In this document: positions 5,754 to 38,170 of the stretch, piece by piece
Numbering within the stretch: the stretch's first letter is position 1
Layout: each line of letters begins with the position of its first letter
DNA from: Proteus penneri
Lineage (GTDB): Bacteria; Pseudomonadota; Gammaproteobacteria; Enterobacterales; Enterobacteriaceae
Assembly: GCF_003144535.1 (NCBI RefSeq)
Contig: NZ_PHFJ01000005.1
Location: 1 to 64,000 of the forward strand
Length of the DNA stretch: 64,000 nucleotides
Direction: 5' to 3'
Translations under genes and position numbers: made by a program
Notes under the pieces: generated by a model
The model's database searches: none
What the model saw: only the letters and a program-made list of their open reading frames with translations
Told to the model about the DNA's origin: nothing

Positions 5754-6671
5754 ATGGAGCTCATTTTTTTAGGCACTAATGCTGGTGTTCCTTCTAAAGA
5801 TCGGAACGTCACAAGTATGGTGCTTGATTTACAAAATAAACAAAAAAGTATGTGGATGTTCGATTGTGGTGAAGCGACACAACATCAGATACTGCATACC
5901 CGCGTGAAACTACCGCGTTTAAATAAAATTTTTATTACCCATTTGCATGGCGATCATATTTTTGGTTTACCAGGATTACTTTGTAGTCGCTCAATGGGGG
6001 GAACAGAAACACTTTTAACAGTGTATGGCCCTACGGGTATAAAAGCTTTTATAGAAACAGCGCTGACATTAAGTCAATCCTATTTAACTTACCCTATTAA
6101 TATTATTGAGATTGACGAAGCTGGTTTTCTGTTTGAAGAAGAAGGAATGAAAGTCAGTTGTGAAGCGCTTTCTCATCCAGTACCTTGTTTTGGCTATCGC
6201 TTAGAAGAAGAAAATAGCCCCGGTAAACTCGATGCTCAGAAGCTAAAAGCTGAAAATATTCCGACCGGCCCTTGGTTACAAGAGTTAAAACAAGGCAAAA
6301 CTATTACGTTGCCCGATGGCAGAGTCATTGATGGCCAAGAATATATCGGCCCTGAAATAAAAGGACGCTGTATTGCTATTTTTGGTGATACACAACCCAC
6401 TCCGGATGCATTAAAACTAGCAAATAATGCAGATGTTATTGTGCATGAAGCAACGTTTAAGCATGAAATGGCAGAACAAGCCAATAGTCGCGGGCATTCA
6501 ACTACAGTACAAGCTGCAACATTAGCAAAAGACGCTAATGTCAAAAAGTTGATTATTACCCATCTTAGTAGCCGCTATTTACCCGAAGAGTGCGTTGAGT
6601 TACTCAATGAATGCCAACACGTTTTTAGCCATACTGAAATTGCGTCTGATTTTGCTGTGTTTAAGTTATAG
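5754..6671 (+). CDS. rbn: Ribonuclease BN / RNase Z (metallo-beta-lactamase fold)
   Basis: 305 aa. MELIFLGT(N/S)AGVP…FITHLHGDHIFGLPGLLCSRSM… aligns with E. coli RNase BN (ElaC) over its full length. It starts 9 nt after the rtcR stop codon. Confidence 0.85.
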   Translation: MELIFLGTNAGVPSKDRNVTSMVLDLQNKQKSMWMFDCGEATQHQILHTRVKLPRLNKIFITHLHGDHIFGLPGLLCSRSMGGTETLLTVYGPTGIKAFIETALTLSQSYLTYPINIIEIDEAGFLFEEEGMKVSCEALSHPVPCFGYRLEEENSPGKLDAQKLKAENIPTGPWLQELKQGKTITLPDGRVIDGQEYIGPEIKGRCIAIFGDTQPTPDALKLANNADVIVHEATFKHEMAEQANSRGHSTTVQAATLAKDANVKKLIITHLSSRYLPEECVELLNECQHVFSHTEIASDFAVFKL

Positions 6672-33105: not shown

Positions 33106-33906
33106 TCACTCAACCGGTTGTCCTTTTGCTTTCTGCCAACAGATCTCCATCTCTTCCAATGAGGCATTTTCTATGCCAGTGCCTTTTTCTGAGAGCATTT
33201 TTTCAACAAAACGAAAGCGCTGTTCAAATTTTCGGCATGCTCGATTTAATGCTTGCTCGGGTTTTTGTTTTAAATGACGTGATAAATTCACCACAGAAAA
33301 CAATAAATCACCTAACTCATCTTCAATTCGAGAGGCATCTTGAGGCTCTTTTTTCACCTCAGCTATCACTTCATCAATTTCTTCATAAACTTTACCCAAG
33401 ACAGGCTCTAGTTCATTCCAATCGAACCCCACTGAAGCACAACGCTTTTGAATTTTTTCTGCTTTCATTAAGGCTGGTAAAGTAGCGGGAATATCATCTA
33501 ATAATGAAAATTGTGCTTTTGCCTCACGCTCTTGAGCTTTAAGTTTTTCCCAACGATGTTTTTCTGTTGATAAATTGTTTTCGCTTTCAGAAGCAAAAAT
33601 ATGAGGGTGACGGCGTTCTAGCTTATTACTAATAGCTTCACAAACATCATTAAAATCAAATAACTTTTGCTCTTGCGCCATGCGTGAATAAAACACAACT
33701 TGATAAAGCAAATCGCCCAGCTCTTCTTTTAAATCAGCAAAATCTTTGCGTGTAATGGCATCTAATACTTCATAGGTTTCTTCTAATGTATAAGGTGCGA
33801 TAGTGTCAAAAGTCTGCACTTTATCCCATTCGCACCCTGTTTCAGGATCACGTAGCTGTACCATAATTTCTAATAAACGAAAGATTTCACGATTTTCTGA
33901 CATCAT
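33106..33906 (-). CDS. mazG: Nucleoside triphosphate pyrophosphohydrolase MazG
   Basis: MMSENREIFRLLEIMVQLRDPETGCEWDKVQTFDTIAPYTLEETYEVLDAI… matches E. coli MazG. Start at 33906 with AAAGG upstream. The ORF-track start at 33987 would overlap the repeat/terminator. Confidence 0.88.
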   Translation of the reverse strand: MMSENREIFRLLEIMVQLRDPETGCEWDKVQTFDTIAPYTLEETYEVLDAITRKDFADLKEELGDLLYQVVFYSRMAQEQKLFDFNDVCEAISNKLERRHPHIFASESENNLSTEKHRWEKLKAQEREAKAQFSLLDDIPATLPALMKAEKIQKRCASVGFDWNELEPVLGKVYEEIDEVIAEVKKEPQDASRIEDELGDLLFSVVNLSRHLKQKPEQALNRACRKFEQRFRFVEKMLSEKGTGIENASLEEMEICWQKAKGQPVE

Positions 33907-33948: not shown

Positions 33949-34000
33949 TTTTAGATAAAAAAATGCCGAGAACAGTTTTCTCGGCATCTTATCATTTCAA
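33949..34000. repeat. 52-bp direct repeat, copy 1, containing a terminator-like hairpin; left boundary of the inserted cassette
   Basis: ttttagataaaaaaATGCCGAGAacagtttTCTCGGCATcttatcatttcaa. Copy 2 is at 35877-35928, with 3 mismatches of which 2 are in the loop. On the minus strand the hairpin is followed by TTTTTTT. Confidence 0.75.
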
Positions 34001-34146
34001 GCTCAAGATCTTAAAAATAACTTTTTTGAAAGAATAATGACATTTTAAATTGAACTATAAATTTGTTATTTACAAATATACTCCTCGCTATAAATCCACT
34101 TTTCAACATCATATAAATACGTCATTTTTATCAAAGGATTAATAAA

Positions 34147-35421
34147 ATGGGTGAAAATATAATTCAATTTAGTTCATTAACTGTAACGCCACATAGTGCT
34201 TATATTCCTGAGTATGCTTTTAATAATGGTTTTTCTTTTAATCAAGCTACAAATATTATTTGTAATAATTTTATGCAGGATAAAAACCAAGAATGCCCTG
34301 TTTGCGGAAAGAAAAATTGTCCAGCGTTTAAAAATGAATGTAAATCTTACTTAAAACAGAAAACCGAGTTAGCATTAAAAAAAGCATTAATAATGCGACC
34401 TTATGGCCGTGCTTTAATGCATAGATCAAACGAGTTTAATAAAAGCTCTCCATTACTATTATTAAATATGGAAGAAAATAACATTCCATTAAATAATGAA
34501 AATATAGGTCGTATATTTGAAGCAGATCTGAATCTAAGTAGAATGTTTTACCAAAAAATGAACTATATAAATGGTTTTCTCTTTGATATTCATTTTAGTC
34601 CTCATCCAGATCCTATGTTACAAAATATAGGTGAAAAATTTGGGGAATATTCCCGCTGGTTACCCTCAGTTCGATTAGCCTTACATGCCTTATATGCGGA
34701 TAAAGGTGCAGACAATATAAATAATTTCCCTGAGATGCAAAAATACATCAGAGAACAAGATTTTAAATCCGCATGCCAAGATTTCCATAATAATATGACG
34801 TTTACATATCGCAATTTCCAAATTGCTGATATTTTAGCTCAACAAGCCAATAAAAAAGAACAAATAGATAATGATTTTAATCAGTTACATGATTCAATAA
34901 AGTTTACGGCTGATTTTTATAAAGAAGTGTTTAATGCTTATGGTGATAAAGCAAGGAAATTAGCAGAGTCTTTAGCCCAACAAGCCAGAGGAAAAACCAT
35001 CCGTAACGTTGATGATGCGCTAAAAGCTTACGAAAAATACAAAGTGGATATCAATAGAAGAATTAATGCCAAAGATCGTAAAGCTATTGCGACCGCATTG
35101 GAATCGATCAAAATCGATGATATAGCTCAAAAATTAAAAAAATTTAGTAAAGGTATGTTTTTTGTGAGTAAAGCTCTTGACGTCAAAGATCTATGGATAG
35201 AGTTAATTAAAGCAACAGAAACGGATGATTGGCGTCCATTTTTTGTTAAAGCAGAGACTATATTTGCAGGAATGGCGGTCACATCTGTAGCTGGATTTAC
35301 ATTTAGTGTACTTCTAGGAGGTCCTATAGGTATATTAGGATATGGATTGCTCATAGCTAGTATAGGAGCATTGATTAATAATGATTTAATCGAAAAAGCT
35401 AATAATTTAATTGGTATTTAA
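34147..35421 (+). CDS. Chimeric toxin candidate: novel N-terminal region (aa 1-~235, with a C-x2-C-x4-C-x6-C motif) fused to a colicin A/E1-type pore-forming (channel) domain (aa ~235-424)
   Basis: The C-terminus …GKTIRNVDDALKAYEKYKVDINRRINAKDRKAIATALESIKIDD…TDDWRPFFVKAETIFAGMAVTSVAGFTFSVLLGGPIGILGYGLLIASIGALINNDLIEKANNLIGI closely parallels the remembered colicin A end (…[66 protein letters not shown]) and the colicin E1 channel domain, including its hydrophobic helical hairpin. AAGGA lies 9 nt before the ATG. GC content is ~30%, against ~40% in the flanks. Confidence 0.7.
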   Translation: MGENIIQFSSLTVTPHSAYIPEYAFNNGFSFNQATNIICNNFMQDKNQECPVCGKKNCPAFKNECKSYLKQKTELALKKALIMRPYGRALMHRSNEFNKSSPLLLLNMEENNIPLNNENIGRIFEADLNLSRMFYQKMNYINGFLFDIHFSPHPDPMLQNIGEKFGEYSRWLPSVRLALHALYADKGADNINNFPEMQKYIREQDFKSACQDFHNNMTFTYRNFQIADILAQQANKKEQIDNDFNQLHDSIKFTADFYKEVFNAYGDKARKLAESLAQQARGKTIRNVDDALKAYEKYKVDINRRINAKDRKAIATALESIKIDDIAQKLKKFSKGMFFVSKALDVKDLWIELIKATETDDWRPFFVKAETIFAGMAVTSVAGFTFSVLLGGPIGILGYGLLIASIGALINNDLIEKANNLIGI

Positions 35422-35444
35422 TTAATAAATTAAAGGTTATTTAT

Positions 35445-35783
35445 TTAGAGAAAAAACCTTTTCACTGACACAAATAATATAAAAATCATTGTAATTGGTA
35501 TAGATAATAAAAACACTATAAAACTATATAAAGCTAAACCACCAGCTTTACCAGCTGTATCTAAAAATAATCCTCGATTCCAAAATTCTCTGGTAGTAAA
35601 TTGAAGAAAAAAACATTCAATTCCCCATTTAGCTAACGGATATAATACAATACCAGCAATACTAATTAACAATATTAAACTTTCATATTTTAACTCATAT
35701 TCTAAACAAGAGTATAAAAATAAAGCGCCAATAAACCATCCCCAACACATATTCTTAATATAATATTGTTTAGTTATCTTCAT
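35445..35783 (-). CDS. Pore-forming-colicin (E1-type) immunity-like inner-membrane protein
   Basis: 112 aa with three predicted TM helices. It is convergent with and immediately downstream of the toxin gene, the standard arrangement for pore-former immunity genes. The N-terminus MKITKQYYIKNMCWG… resembles the remembered ColE1 Imm start (MSLRYYIKNILFG…), and ColE1 Imm is 113 aa. Confidence 0.62.
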   Translation of the reverse strand: MKITKQYYIKNMCWGWFIGALFLYSCLEYELKYESLILLISIAGIVLYPLAKWGIECFFLQFTTREFWNRGLFLDTAGKAGGLALYSFIVFLLSIPITMIFILFVSVKRFFL

Positions 35784-35876
35784 ATTTATCTGCTAGATCC
35801 CTTTTATTTAAAACCATATTTACTTTAAATAAACCATAGCAATTTAATCACTAACTAAATATACAGTTTTTCTGAT

Positions 35877-35928
35877 TTTTAGATAAAAAAATGCCGAGAA
35901 CAATTGTCTCGGCATCTTATCATTTTAA
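35877..35928. repeat. 52-bp direct repeat, copy 2; rho-independent terminator of relA on the minus strand
   Basis: ttttagataaaaaaATGCCGAGAacaattgTCTCGGCATcttatcattttaa lies 5 nt downstream of the relA stop codon. Confidence 0.75.
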
Positions 35929-35932
35929 TGTT

Positions 35933-38170
35933 TTAGTGAGAAAAGCGTTTCGCCTCTATCACATCAGGCAGTTGATTAAGTTTTGCCAAAATACGACTTA
36001 ATACTTGGAGATTATAAATCTCAATATTCATATCGATTGTCGCAATTTGTTGCTTCACATCACTGCGGCTACTCACACCAAGTACATTCACTTTCTCATT
36101 GGCTAGAATAGTGGTGATATCGCGTAATAACCCACTACGATCATTCGCGACAACACGTACTACCAATGAATAACCGCTGGAATAATTCTCTCCCCATACT
36201 GCATCAACAATACGCTCTGGCGCATGAGAAAGTAATTCAGCAAGTTGTTCACAATCTGCTCGGTGAATCGAAATACCTCGACCTTTAGTAATAAAACCAA
36301 CAATATTATCACCCGGAATAGGCTGGCAACAGCGCGCAATATGATGCATTAAATTACCAACACCCTCAACGACAATACTACTCCCTGAGCCAGTGGTTCT
36401 TGGTGCTGGCGTTTTGCTTTCGAGTGTCCGCAGTGCCTCTTTATCTTCATCTTCTGCAGTGGCTTTATTTAATTTACTTTGAATAAAGTTCACTAATTGA
36501 TTAATTCGGATATCACCGACACCAATCCCAGCTAATACTTCATCAACACTATGCACGTTATAACGTGCAATCAGCAGTTTTTCTGCTTCTTTCATGTTGA
36601 TATCCATATGCGCCAATTCGTTATCTAAAATCTGACGCCCTGCAAGAATATTTTTATCGCGATCTTGCTTACGGAACCAATTGTGAATTTTCGCACGTCC
36701 ACGACTTGTCGTGACATAACCTAAATTAGGATTTAACCAATCACGACTCGGATTAGGATGTTTTTGCGTGATGATTTCAATTTGATCGCCCATCTGTAGC
36801 TGATAGCTAAAGGGCACAATGCGCCCGCCAATTTTCGCTCCAATGCAGCGGTGCCCCACATCACTATGAATATGATACGCAAAATCAAGCGGTGTTGAGC
36901 CAGCAGGTAAATCAACGACATCACCTTTTGGTGTAAAGACATACACTCGATCATCAAAAACCTGACTACGGACTTCATCCAACATTTCGCCAGAATCCGC
37001 CATCTCTTCTTGCCACGCAATCAGTTTACGTAGCCATGCAATACGGTTTTCATAACTTCCTGTACCGCCTTTCGTCGCAGCACCTGTAGCACCTTCTTTA
37101 TATTTCCAGTGCGCAGCCACACCCAACTCTGCATCTTCATGCATTTGGCGAGTACGAATTTGGATTTCAACTGTTTTACCTTCAGGCCCTAATACAACAG
37201 TATGAATAGATTGATAACCATTAGGCTTTGGATTTGCCACATAATCATCAAATTCATCAGGTAAATGGCGGAAATGCGTATGCACAATTCCCAATGCGGC
37301 ATAACAGTCTTGAAGACGTTCAACGACTATACGAACAGCCCTCACATCGAATAATTCATCAAATGCGAGGTTCTTTTTCTTCATTTTACGCCAAATACTG
37401 TAGATATGTTTGGGACGCCCATAGATATCTACATCAACATTCTCTTCTTTCATATAACCACGTACTGTACTGACAAAATTATCAATATACTGTTCGCGAT
37501 CGATACGGCGCTCATGAAGCAAGCTTGCTATTTTTTTGTATTCATCAGGATGAAGATAGCGGAAACAAAAATCTTCTAATTCCCATTTTAATTGACCAAT
37601 ACCCAATCGGTTGGCTAACGGCGCATAAATATTAAAACACTCTTTAGCGGCCAGTACGCGCTCATCTTCTGTGGCATCTTTTACTTCGCGTAAATGGGCT
37701 ATACGCTCTGATAGTTTAATGACTACACAACGGAAATCTTCTACCATAGATAACAACATACGACGTACGTTATCTACCTGAATGGAGCTTGTTTCATTGG
37801 TATGTGTCGCTTTTAATTGGCGTATGGCGTCCATCTCCATAACACCACGCACTAAACTCCAAATAGCATCACCAAAGTGTTCAGTGACAATTTCCTGACC
37901 AATAAGATTTTCTTCAGCAAGAGGGAAAAGAAGCGCTGCCCTCATGCTGTCTTTATCCATGCTGAGTGTCGAAAGAAGCTCAACCATTTCAACACCACGC
38001 CACAATAGCCGTTCAGCATCTTCACGCCCTTGAACAGTACGATGGCAGTATTCCCAGGTTTGCATGATTTCACTACCCGCATTGGTATGAGTTAAGTTCA
38101 AGCTGTTAACCCATTTATCAACAGCAAACTCTCCCGCAGGTGTTAAGTGAGCACTTCTTACTGCAACCAT
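35933..38170 (-). CDS. relA: GTP pyrophosphokinase ((p)ppGpp synthetase I)
   Basis: 745 aa, full-length RelA match. Confidence 0.95.
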   Translation of the reverse strand: MVAVRSAHLTPAGEFAVDKWVNSLNLTHTNAGSEIMQTWEYCHRTVQGREDAERLLWRGVEMVELLSTLSMDKDSMRAALLFPLAEENLIGQEIVTEHFGDAIWSLVRGVMEMDAIRQLKATHTNETSSIQVDNVRRMLLSMVEDFRCVVIKLSERIAHLREVKDATEDERVLAAKECFNIYAPLANRLGIGQLKWELEDFCFRYLHPDEYKKIASLLHERRIDREQYIDNFVSTVRGYMKEENVDVDIYGRPKHIYSIWRKMKKKNLAFDELFDVRAVRIVVERLQDCYAALGIVHTHFRHLPDEFDDYVANPKPNGYQSIHTVVLGPEGKTVEIQIRTRQMHEDAELGVAAHWKYKEGATGAATKGGTGSYENRIAWLRKLIAWQEEMADSGEMLDEVRSQVFDDRVYVFTPKGDVVDLPAGSTPLDFAYHIHSDVGHRCIGAKIGGRIVPFSYQLQMGDQIEIITQKHPNPSRDWLNPNLGYVTTSRGRAKIHNWFRKQDRDKNILAGRQILDNELAHMDINMKEAEKLLIARYNVHSVDEVLAGIGVGDIRINQLVNFIQSKLNKATAEDEDKEALRTLESKTPAPRTTGSGSSIVVEGVGNLMHHIARCCQPIPGDNIVGFITKGRGISIHRADCEQLAELLSHAPERIVDAVWGENYSSGYSLVVRVVANDRSGLLRDITTILANEKVNVLGVSSRSDVKQQIATIDMNIEIYNLQVLSRILAKLNQLPDVIEAKRFSH

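Follow-up and report, generated by a model that had tools for sequence, protein, structure and literature searches.

Escherichia coli carries the toxin–antitoxin genes mazE and mazF between relA and mazG. At the same junction of the Proteus penneri chromosome there is a different two-gene module, which raises the questions of what this module encodes, how its toxin could reach a target cell, and how the module came to lie there. We examined it in a window of 64,000 nucleotides (NCBI RefSeq assembly GCF_003144535.1, contig NZ_PHFJ01000005.1, positions 1 to 64,000 of the forward strand), to which all coordinates refer unless another locus is named. The first gene (34147..35421, forward strand) is an intact open reading frame (ORF) of 424 codons whose Pfam and PDB-sequence matches identify the product as a colicin-like pore-forming bacteriocin. 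The second (35445..35783, reverse strand) encodes an immunity protein of the colicin Ia/E1 type with 112 amino acids, as judged from PF03526, hydropathy and sequence similarity. The two genes are convergent, with a gap of 23 bp on the stop-codon side. Together they are almost certainly a pore-former/immunity pair, and we consider it likely that the toxin is a diffusible bacteriocin that would enter its targets in a TonB-dependent manner. A prior reading of the letters and ORF list alone (the sequence-only reading) had described both ORFs with these positions, strands and convergent arrangement, and the ORF listing bears it out.

The relA–mazG spacer encodes a pore-forming toxin and its immunity protein

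The pore-forming domain occupies residues 245–421 of the toxin (34879..35409, forward strand), as identified from PF01024, similarity to colicin Ia and hydropathy. It matches the Pfam Colicin profile PF01024 over positions 9–185 of 185 with an E-value of 3e-52 (177.6 bits, against a cut-off of 23.4). In a search of PDB sequences the best match is to colicin Ia (1cii, E 1.5e-54, toxin residues 225–420); ColIb (8iom, E 4.9e-51) and pyocin S5 (6thk, E 1.6e-48) also give full-length domain alignments, and colicin E1 and then colicins A, S4, B and N match as well. Strong hydrophobicity is confined in the toxin to residues ~371–410 (35257-35376), which align to the hydrophobic hairpin of colicins Ia and Ib; they are preceded by the motif DDWRPFF at residues 360–366, and the protein ends in NNLIGI. 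The sequence-only reading had assigned the C-terminus to the colicin channel domains on the basis of such a hairpin and a (G)DW(K/R)P(L/F)F-type motif, and the profile search that it proposed confirms the assignment. Channel formation and membrane depolarisation are the predicted activities of the domain.

The 112-residue protein scores 30.4 bits against PF03526, the colicin E1 immunity family (cut-off 25), and is 49–52% identical over 96% of its length (E 3e-28) to annotated immunity genes of the colicin Ia/E1 family, which are found on about 1,000 enterobacterial plasmids. Hydropathy indicates three hydrophobic segments, at residues ~13–31 (weak), 35–55 and 82–108, and these results agree with the proposal of an E1-type immunity protein with three transmembrane segments. 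The gene presumably has an opposite-strand promoter of its own, which from the sequence would lie in the region between its start and the right end of the insert (35784..35876, reverse strand). The pair resembles those of colicins Ia and Ib, in that the channel domain aligns over its whole length and the immunity protein is about 50% identical, of the same length and encoded convergently.

The position of the pair in the slot of E. coli mazEF, and its combination of a toxin with an antidote, could also suggest an addiction module that stabilises the relA–mazG region and replaces mazEF functionally; cells that lose a bacteriocin/immunity pair can, moreover, be killed by their kin. We regard this as highly improbable. 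No MazE, MazF/PemK or other type II toxin–antitoxin domain was found by Pfam, and the genes, unlike those of mazEF-like type II systems, are convergent with separate promoters and do not form a single autoregulated operon. Three Proteus species are without the module and show no scar but a single copy of the relA terminator. In addition, pore-forming colicins exert their effect from the outer side of the inner membrane, such that a toxin in the cytoplasm spares its producer, unlike the toxin of a toxin–antitoxin system. The two genes are a bacteriocin/immunity pair and not a toxin–antitoxin system.

The N-terminal region resembles a bacteriocin import module

Similarity to colicin Ia begins only at about residue 225, and the N-terminal 240 residues of the toxin contain neither the translocation domain nor the long Cir-binding coiled coil of that protein; the only other stretch aligned to 1cii scores -4.2 bits. 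The toxin is also shorter, with 424 residues, compared with 602 in the 1cii chain and 626 in the whole of colicin Ia. An AlphaFold model of the N-domain, built from six sequences, has a mean predicted local distance difference test (pLDDT) score of 73.7 and a predicted template modelling score of 0.66, with residues 1–26 disordered and the remainder helical.

The disordered segment (residues 1–26, 34147..34224, forward strand; pLDDT below 50, and alignment) contains the sequence SSLTV at residues 9–13 (34171-34185), followed by a conserved TPH. Across the N-domain family this motif takes the forms SSLTV-TPH, GSLVV-TPH, DTLVV-TPH, DVMVV-TPH and SALSV-EEH, giving the pattern xxL/MxV, and V13 and H16 are invariant in the alignment. 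The TonB box of colicin M is ETLTV (PMC11658791) and that of pesticin is DTMVV (PMC3390615); SSLTV resembles both and is a putative TonB-box-like motif, as are found in colicins Ia and Ib near the N-terminus. The sequence-only reading had called the export and delivery route unknown, but with a conserved motif of this kind the entry step is not entirely blank.

Two further elements follow. A Cys4 motif, CPVCGxxxCxxFxxxC, is located at residues 50–65 (34294..34341, forward strand), where C50, P51, V52, C53, G54, C58, F61 and C65 are invariant in the alignment; it is modelled as a small beta hairpin and is possibly a zinc knuckle or a disulfide loop. Beyond it, a helical subdomain (residues ~113–225, 34483..34821, forward strand) is weakly similar to the C-terminal lobe of T4-type (GH24) lysozymes, the alignment reaching lysozyme residues ~48–147 only. 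The N-domain alignment contains no invariant acidic residue, and the catalytic Glu/Asp/Thr of GH24 lysozymes are not conserved. The lysozyme link gains no support from Foldseek, which gave no match with E below 1 for the N-domain model against PDB and BFVD, or from Pfam and NCBIfam, which returned sub-threshold noise only for the N-domain. On balance we lean slightly towards a lysozyme origin for this subdomain and, if it is so derived, its sequence suggests that it is probably inactive. A 25-residue match to colicin Z in the N-domain (E 0.023) was dropped as uninformative after comparison with the colicin Z paper.

Short TonB-dependent bacteriocins are known, including colicin M and the pesticin of Yersinia pestis. 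In pesticin, however, the lysozyme domain is C-terminal, catalytically active and responsible for killing, whereas in the window toxin the lysozyme-like segment lies in the import region, lacks conserved acidic residues, and killing would be a function of the pore domain. Pyocin S5 of Pseudomonas aeruginosa, which is imported via FptA and TonB1, is another parallel; it too is chromosomal, with a homologous pore domain and a disordered N-terminus carrying a TonB-binding site, to which the TonB-box-like motif would correspond. Both import regions are all-helical and not Gly-rich (PMC7064778). The N-terminal 240 residues of the window toxin contain 3.75% Gly, and the absence of a Gly-rich translocation domain and of an Ia-like receptor coiled coil, to which the sequence-only reading had drawn attention, is confirmed; it is not unusual, as pyocin S5 has no Gly-rich domain and no colicin-type coiled coil either (PMC7064778). 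The window toxin differs from pyocin S5 in that it has no match to the kinked three-helix-bundle domains, and has the Cys4 motif and lysozyme-like lobe instead, as well as in its immunity type and host genus.

The N-domain is rare. Four matches were returned when 1.84 billion cluster representatives were searched exhaustively with phmmer, and a profile search across 5.8 billion proteins contributed nothing further but fragments, which leaves about five related clusters, none of them a colicin Ia. The family is confined to Proteus, Providencia, Photorhabdus asymbiotica (plasmid pPAU1), Pectobacterium carotovorum (plasmid Drgb1) and one lacewing genome. Within it the N-domain is joined to two pore subtypes, the Ia type with an E1-type immunity gene, and the A/U type with a Cui immunity gene (Pectobacterium); an A/U-type pore also accompanies it in Providencia (P0076). 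Fusion to differing pore subtypes is the behaviour expected of an import module, and by its sequence context the N-domain appears to behave as an exchangeable one. It is a previously undescribed part, and the only truly uncharacterised part of the locus.

Related pairs are found on chromosomes, prophages and plasmids

A homologous pair outside the relA–mazG site is found in P. mirabilis (L023-L026, 6001-7637), in which a toxin that is 72% identical and a convergent E1-type immunity gene are located at the end of a lambdoid prophage, directly after the genes for tail-tip protein J and the tail fibre. A homologue on the 29-kb plasmid pPAU1 of P. asymbiotica has both the N-domain and the pore domain and is about 30% identical. 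These homologues share the full architecture of the window toxin and differ from it in location, being at a prophage end and on a plasmid respectively. Carried as cargo, the two genes move as a small unit from one type of replicon to another. The copy in the window is a stripped-down chromosomal version, and its close relatives indicate that chromosomal and prophage-borne homologues are common in the Morganellaceae.

Several other loci are related in part. In Proteus GCA_031873025.1 (L033, 5001-6752), a 463-residue pore former with an unrelated N-domain and a pore domain 69% identical to that of the window toxin is accompanied by an E1-type immunity gene, at the end of a different prophage, after tail genes and near smpB. 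Morganella morganii has a 411-residue colicin-like gene on its core chromosome and, downstream, a convergent immunity-like ORF (…TKKYYIQNMCWGWF…; L030, 6257-6664) that was not called by the gene caller. On plasmid Drgb1 of P. carotovorum, from the gut of a cabbage-fly maggot (L027, 2989-4875), a 156-residue N-domain ORF and a separate 258-residue A/U-like pore ORF are accompanied by a Cui immunity gene in convergent orientation; the arrangement suggests a bacteriocin gene broken by a frameshift, in which the same import domain is paired with another type of pore and immunity protein. About 3.6 kb past the pore-former pair in one P. mirabilis locus (L024, 10899-12949) are genes for a second bacteriocin, a 596-residue protein with Cloacin and Col-Pyo_DNase domains, and an 86-residue Colicin_Pyocin immunity protein, with an adjoining integrase fragment, while in L026 the corresponding region holds a PAAR-motif gene instead. 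The region beyond the P. mirabilis pair thus appears to be a variable weapons island.

An alternative explanation for the toxin is that it is a contact-dependent effector, the pore domain of which is delivered by a type VI secretion system (T6SS), contact-dependent inhibition (CDI) or another secretion system. Colicin-like pore domains occur in some T6SS effectors (e.g. TseMt), the N-domain is without a characterised relative, and the PAAR-motif gene of L026 is ~2 kb from the pair. An integrase fragment lies between that gene and the pair, however, and L023-L025 do not have the gene. The toxin itself, unlike T6SS and CDI effectors, contains no PAAR, VgrG, Rhs, MIX or CdiA-type domain in Pfam, and its TonB-box-like motif is typical of imported bacteriocins. 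The module also travels on small plasmids and prophages without secretion genes, and the ten large window ORFs that we scanned are housekeeping genes (PBP1b, HrpB, a BCCT transporter, transketolase, RtcR, PcnB and others), with no secretion-system (T6SS, CDI) or prophage genes among them. Delivery by contact is for these reasons very unlikely, and import of a released protein is the preferred reading.

One member of the family is in an insect. Chromosome FR997757.1 of the lacewing Chrysoperla carnea (77 Mb; 6960554-6981834; L002, 10001-11281) contains an intact, intronless gene for a 426-residue homologue that is 47% identical over its full length, with both N-domain and pore domain, and is named 'colicin-5-like' at NCBI. 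Its G+C content is 39.7%, compared with ~28% in the flanks, its neighbours are sparse and eukaryote-like (one with DUF4820), and we found no immunity gene within 10 kb on either side. It may represent a bacterium-to-insect gene transfer. No paper on this Proteus protein or on the lacewing gene was found in the literature searched. A reading that joins these observations, in which an undescribed import module (a TonB box, an invariant Cys4 motif that is probably a metal-binding knuckle, and a catalytically dead scaffold derived from T4-type lysozyme) belongs to a small group in Morganellaceae and Pectobacterium, and in which a full-length copy without an immunity gene was transferred into the C. 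carnea nuclear genome, where it is maybe antibacterial, is a tentative one, and we think it rather less probable than not as a whole.

The toxin C-terminus and the immunity gene vary together

We compared the pair across 19 locus groups, in 16 of which both genes could be scored. Two types occur at the relA–mazG site and are distinguished by their immunity proteins, type A, that of the window, having 112 amino acids and type B having 114. The differences are concentrated in a specificity cassette, identified by strain comparison, that extends from toxin residue ~338 through residue 424 and the spacer to immunity residues ~20–112 (35158..35727). The 570 bp of this cassette are ~65% identical between type A and type B, and the flanks are 99–100% identical (L001 against the window); comparisons between types also included L007, L010-L012 and L018. 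At the protein level, toxin residues 1–336 are ~99% identical between types, residues 337–424 are 65–67% identical and the immunity protein is 56% identical. The region upstream of the immunity gene, at the right end of the insert (see above), is by contrast the same in strains of either type (100% conserved).

In each of the 16 scorable groups, toxin residues 337–424 and the immunity gene are of matching type. Both types occur among strains with identical MazG and also in different species, and a third pair of C-terminal end and immunity protein, more divergent than these, is found in the prophage copies of P. mirabilis. It is established that immunity proteins of E1 type recognise helices at the C-terminal end of the membrane-inserted channel domain, and the co-variation fits recognition of this kind, with protection predicted to be cognate. 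The pattern of near-identical flanks around a divergent block shows that the toxin-end/immunity unit has diversified by recombination.

Regulation, release and a proposed mode of action

The region upstream of the toxin gene (34001..34146, forward strand) provides an AGGA ribosome-binding site and is nearly identical in five other Proteus species. It contains no LexA box (CTGT-N8-ACAG with at most one mismatch; the best 20-mer match is 12/20), as the sequence-only reading had stated for these 146 bp, and a candidate Fur box was rejected because its match of 11/19 is at the level of shuffled sequences. A palindrome, ATTTGT-TATTT-ACAAAT (34061-34077), is conserved in the five further Proteus species, two of which show single-base changes, and may be an operator for some regulator. 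The P. mirabilis homologue is preceded by a perfect LexA box, TACTGTGTTTGCATACAGTG, and a Fur-like box with a match of 14/19 (L024, within ~5865-5950). DNA homology between the window and the P. mirabilis copy covers 34126-35777 and excludes the flanks, and its beginning just 21 bp before the ATG suggests that the window lineage replaced the promoter. The cia and cib genes are likewise under dual control by LexA and Fur (PMC3879352). The window pair therefore differs from those of colicins Ia and Ib, which are plasmid-borne and TonB/Cir-dependent, both in its chromosomal location and in being without the LexA and Fur boxes of cia and cib.

No small ORF of lysis type or resembling a lipoprotein is present in 33950-35930. 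The absence of a lysis gene had been pointed out before, and that stands; it had been presented as an oddity, yet it is the rule for group B colicins, colicins Ia and Ib among them, and colicin Ib is released via prophage-mediated lysis (PMC7374059). Given this absence, release of the window toxin would be expected through lysis from another cause. We count in favour of prophage lysis the location of the P. mirabilis homologue, and of another Proteus colicin-like gene, at prophage ends after tail genes.

We propose that the island is a two-gene module for interbacterial competition and that its toxin would act as a soluble modular bacteriocin. It would be released when a producer lyses from some other cause, possibly prophage induction, as for colicin Ib. 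The folded N-domain of ~210 residues, with its Cys4 knuckle and helical, possibly lysozyme-derived scaffold, would then attach to a receptor in the outer membrane, for which a TonB-dependent transporter is the likeliest candidate, and the disordered TonB box would be threaded into the periplasm, drawing on the proton-motive force. From the periplasm the ten-helix channel domain of colicin Ia type would insert into the inner membrane of the target and depolarise the cell. In the producer, the 112-residue immunity protein in the inner membrane would block the channel domain, and the final ~88 toxin residues would determine its specificity.

Several observations weigh against this scheme. The assignment of a TonB box depends on five residues, the first two of which (SS) are unlike the acidic residue and Thr of canonical boxes. 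The full-length AlphaFold model, made from a seven-sequence alignment, has a pLDDT of 55 and, although helical throughout, models the pore domain badly; it was discarded for fold searching. Lacking the LexA and Fur boxes that precede cia/cib and the P. mirabilis homologue, the window copy may be poorly expressed. Finally, in Proteus GCA_009915285.1 (L005, 3482-4757) the toxin gene is frameshifted into ORFs of 190 and 241 residues beside an intact gene for a 114-residue immunity protein, and truncations of similar appearance are found in other strains (P0003, P0005, P0072); part of the population can therefore do without making the toxin. Broken toxin genes beside an intact immunity gene are the usual drift toward immune non-producers.

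The last two observations would also fit a defensive or decaying locus, in which the immunity gene is under selection against a bacteriocin of neighbours (e.g. prophage-carrying P. mirabilis) and the toxin is silent or becoming a pseudogene after loss of its SOS and Fur control. The toxin ORF of the window is, however, intact and has a good ribosome-binding site, and toxin residues 1–336 are 99–100% identical among 10 or more independent contigs of this species and 92–97% identical across five other species. Conservation of the 146 bp upstream across species suggests a maintained promoter, and co-variation of the toxin C-terminus with the immunity gene is expected only if the toxin is used. 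We therefore consider a purely defensive or decaying locus unlikely, and favour a toxin that is still deployed as a bacteriocin.

The module is flanked by copies of the relA terminator

On the left the module is bordered by mazG (33106..33903, reverse strand; 265 amino acids, Pfam MazG E 2.6e-41), beyond which are pyrG and then eno, and on the right by relA (35933..38170, reverse strand; Pfam RelA_SpoT, HD_4, TGS and ACT), followed by rlmD. The order at the equivalent junction of E. coli is eno-pyrG-mazG-mazF-mazE-relA-rlmD. Pfam and the neighbouring genes thus bear out the location and gene order in the sequence-only reading, and the E. coli order its placement of mazEF at the same junction; the module's G+C content, estimated there at ~30%, is 28.9% over the 1,876 bp of 34001-35876, compared with 38.4% across the window. 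A 293-residue mazG ORF starting at 33987 was rejected as an artefact of ORF listing, as it runs into the left terminator repeat described below and identical genomes start the gene at 33903; the 265-residue MazG product is called in 20 contigs. An Rfam search of the whole window found a single tRNA and no match inside the island.

A 52-bp direct repeat, of which that reading had made no mention, delimits the insert precisely. The right copy (35877..35928), found by repeat and hairpin searches, is the functional intrinsic terminator of relA, and the left copy (33949..34000), found by repeat search, is a duplicate of this terminator hairpin. The copies are identical at 49 of 52 bases (94%) with a spacing of 1928, each holds a terminator-like hairpin that can be read on both strands, and the unique DNA between them is exactly 34001-35876. 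We scanned for the hairpin in one genome per Proteus species. Three of these species, P. vulgaris, P. columbae and P. hauseri, have an empty site, with a single terminator copy and relA and mazG ~105 bp apart, whereas P. terrae, P. cibi, P. faecis, P. alimentorum and strain FME41 have a filled one. The 20 contigs with the 265-residue call encode a MazG identical to that of the window, and the module is present at all 10 of the places shown for them.

There is no integrase or transposase in the insert, and we found no DNA match to it in the phage collection. Since a duplication of 52 bp is far beyond the length of a transposon target site, and no integrase or transposase is present, we infer integration by a single crossover. 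The module probably entered the relA–mazG spacer by Campbell-type recombination at the relA terminator, from a circular intermediate carrying a copy of that terminator; the crossover would leave the terminator duplicated, and recombination between the copies could delete the module again. This mechanism is deduced from the anatomy of the insertion, and either gain or loss may account for the state of the site in each species.

The sequence-only reading had suggested that this intergenic position tolerates addiction or competition modules. Two independent insertions, this module and E. coli mazEF, agree with that suggestion, although two cases are too few for a hotspot. Among other colicin-like genes of Morganellaceae, the two that we looked up, that of M. 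morganii and one named for P. columbae (P0011), are not at relA–mazG, and with both located elsewhere the idea of a general hotspot gains no support.

Significance of the locus

The window toxin and its close relatives are already named "colicin-like pore-forming protein" at NCBI, and chromosomal or prophage-borne pore formers of this sort with E1-type immunity are a known kind, of which the pore and immunity parts are standard. The high novelty claimed in the sequence-only reading was overstated, as the parts described as missing are normally absent from group B colicins and pyocin S5, and the finding opens no new field. The locus is a clean natural case of how a bacteriocin moves and diversifies, with a terminator-flanked island, filled and empty sites in sister species, and a swapped 570-bp cassette. 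The presence of the same pair on a chromosome, a prophage and plasmids ties bacteriocins without lysis genes to phage-mediated release. The toxin may be a natural narrow-spectrum anti-Proteus protein, and the identity of its receptor would add an import route to the bacteriocin toolbox.

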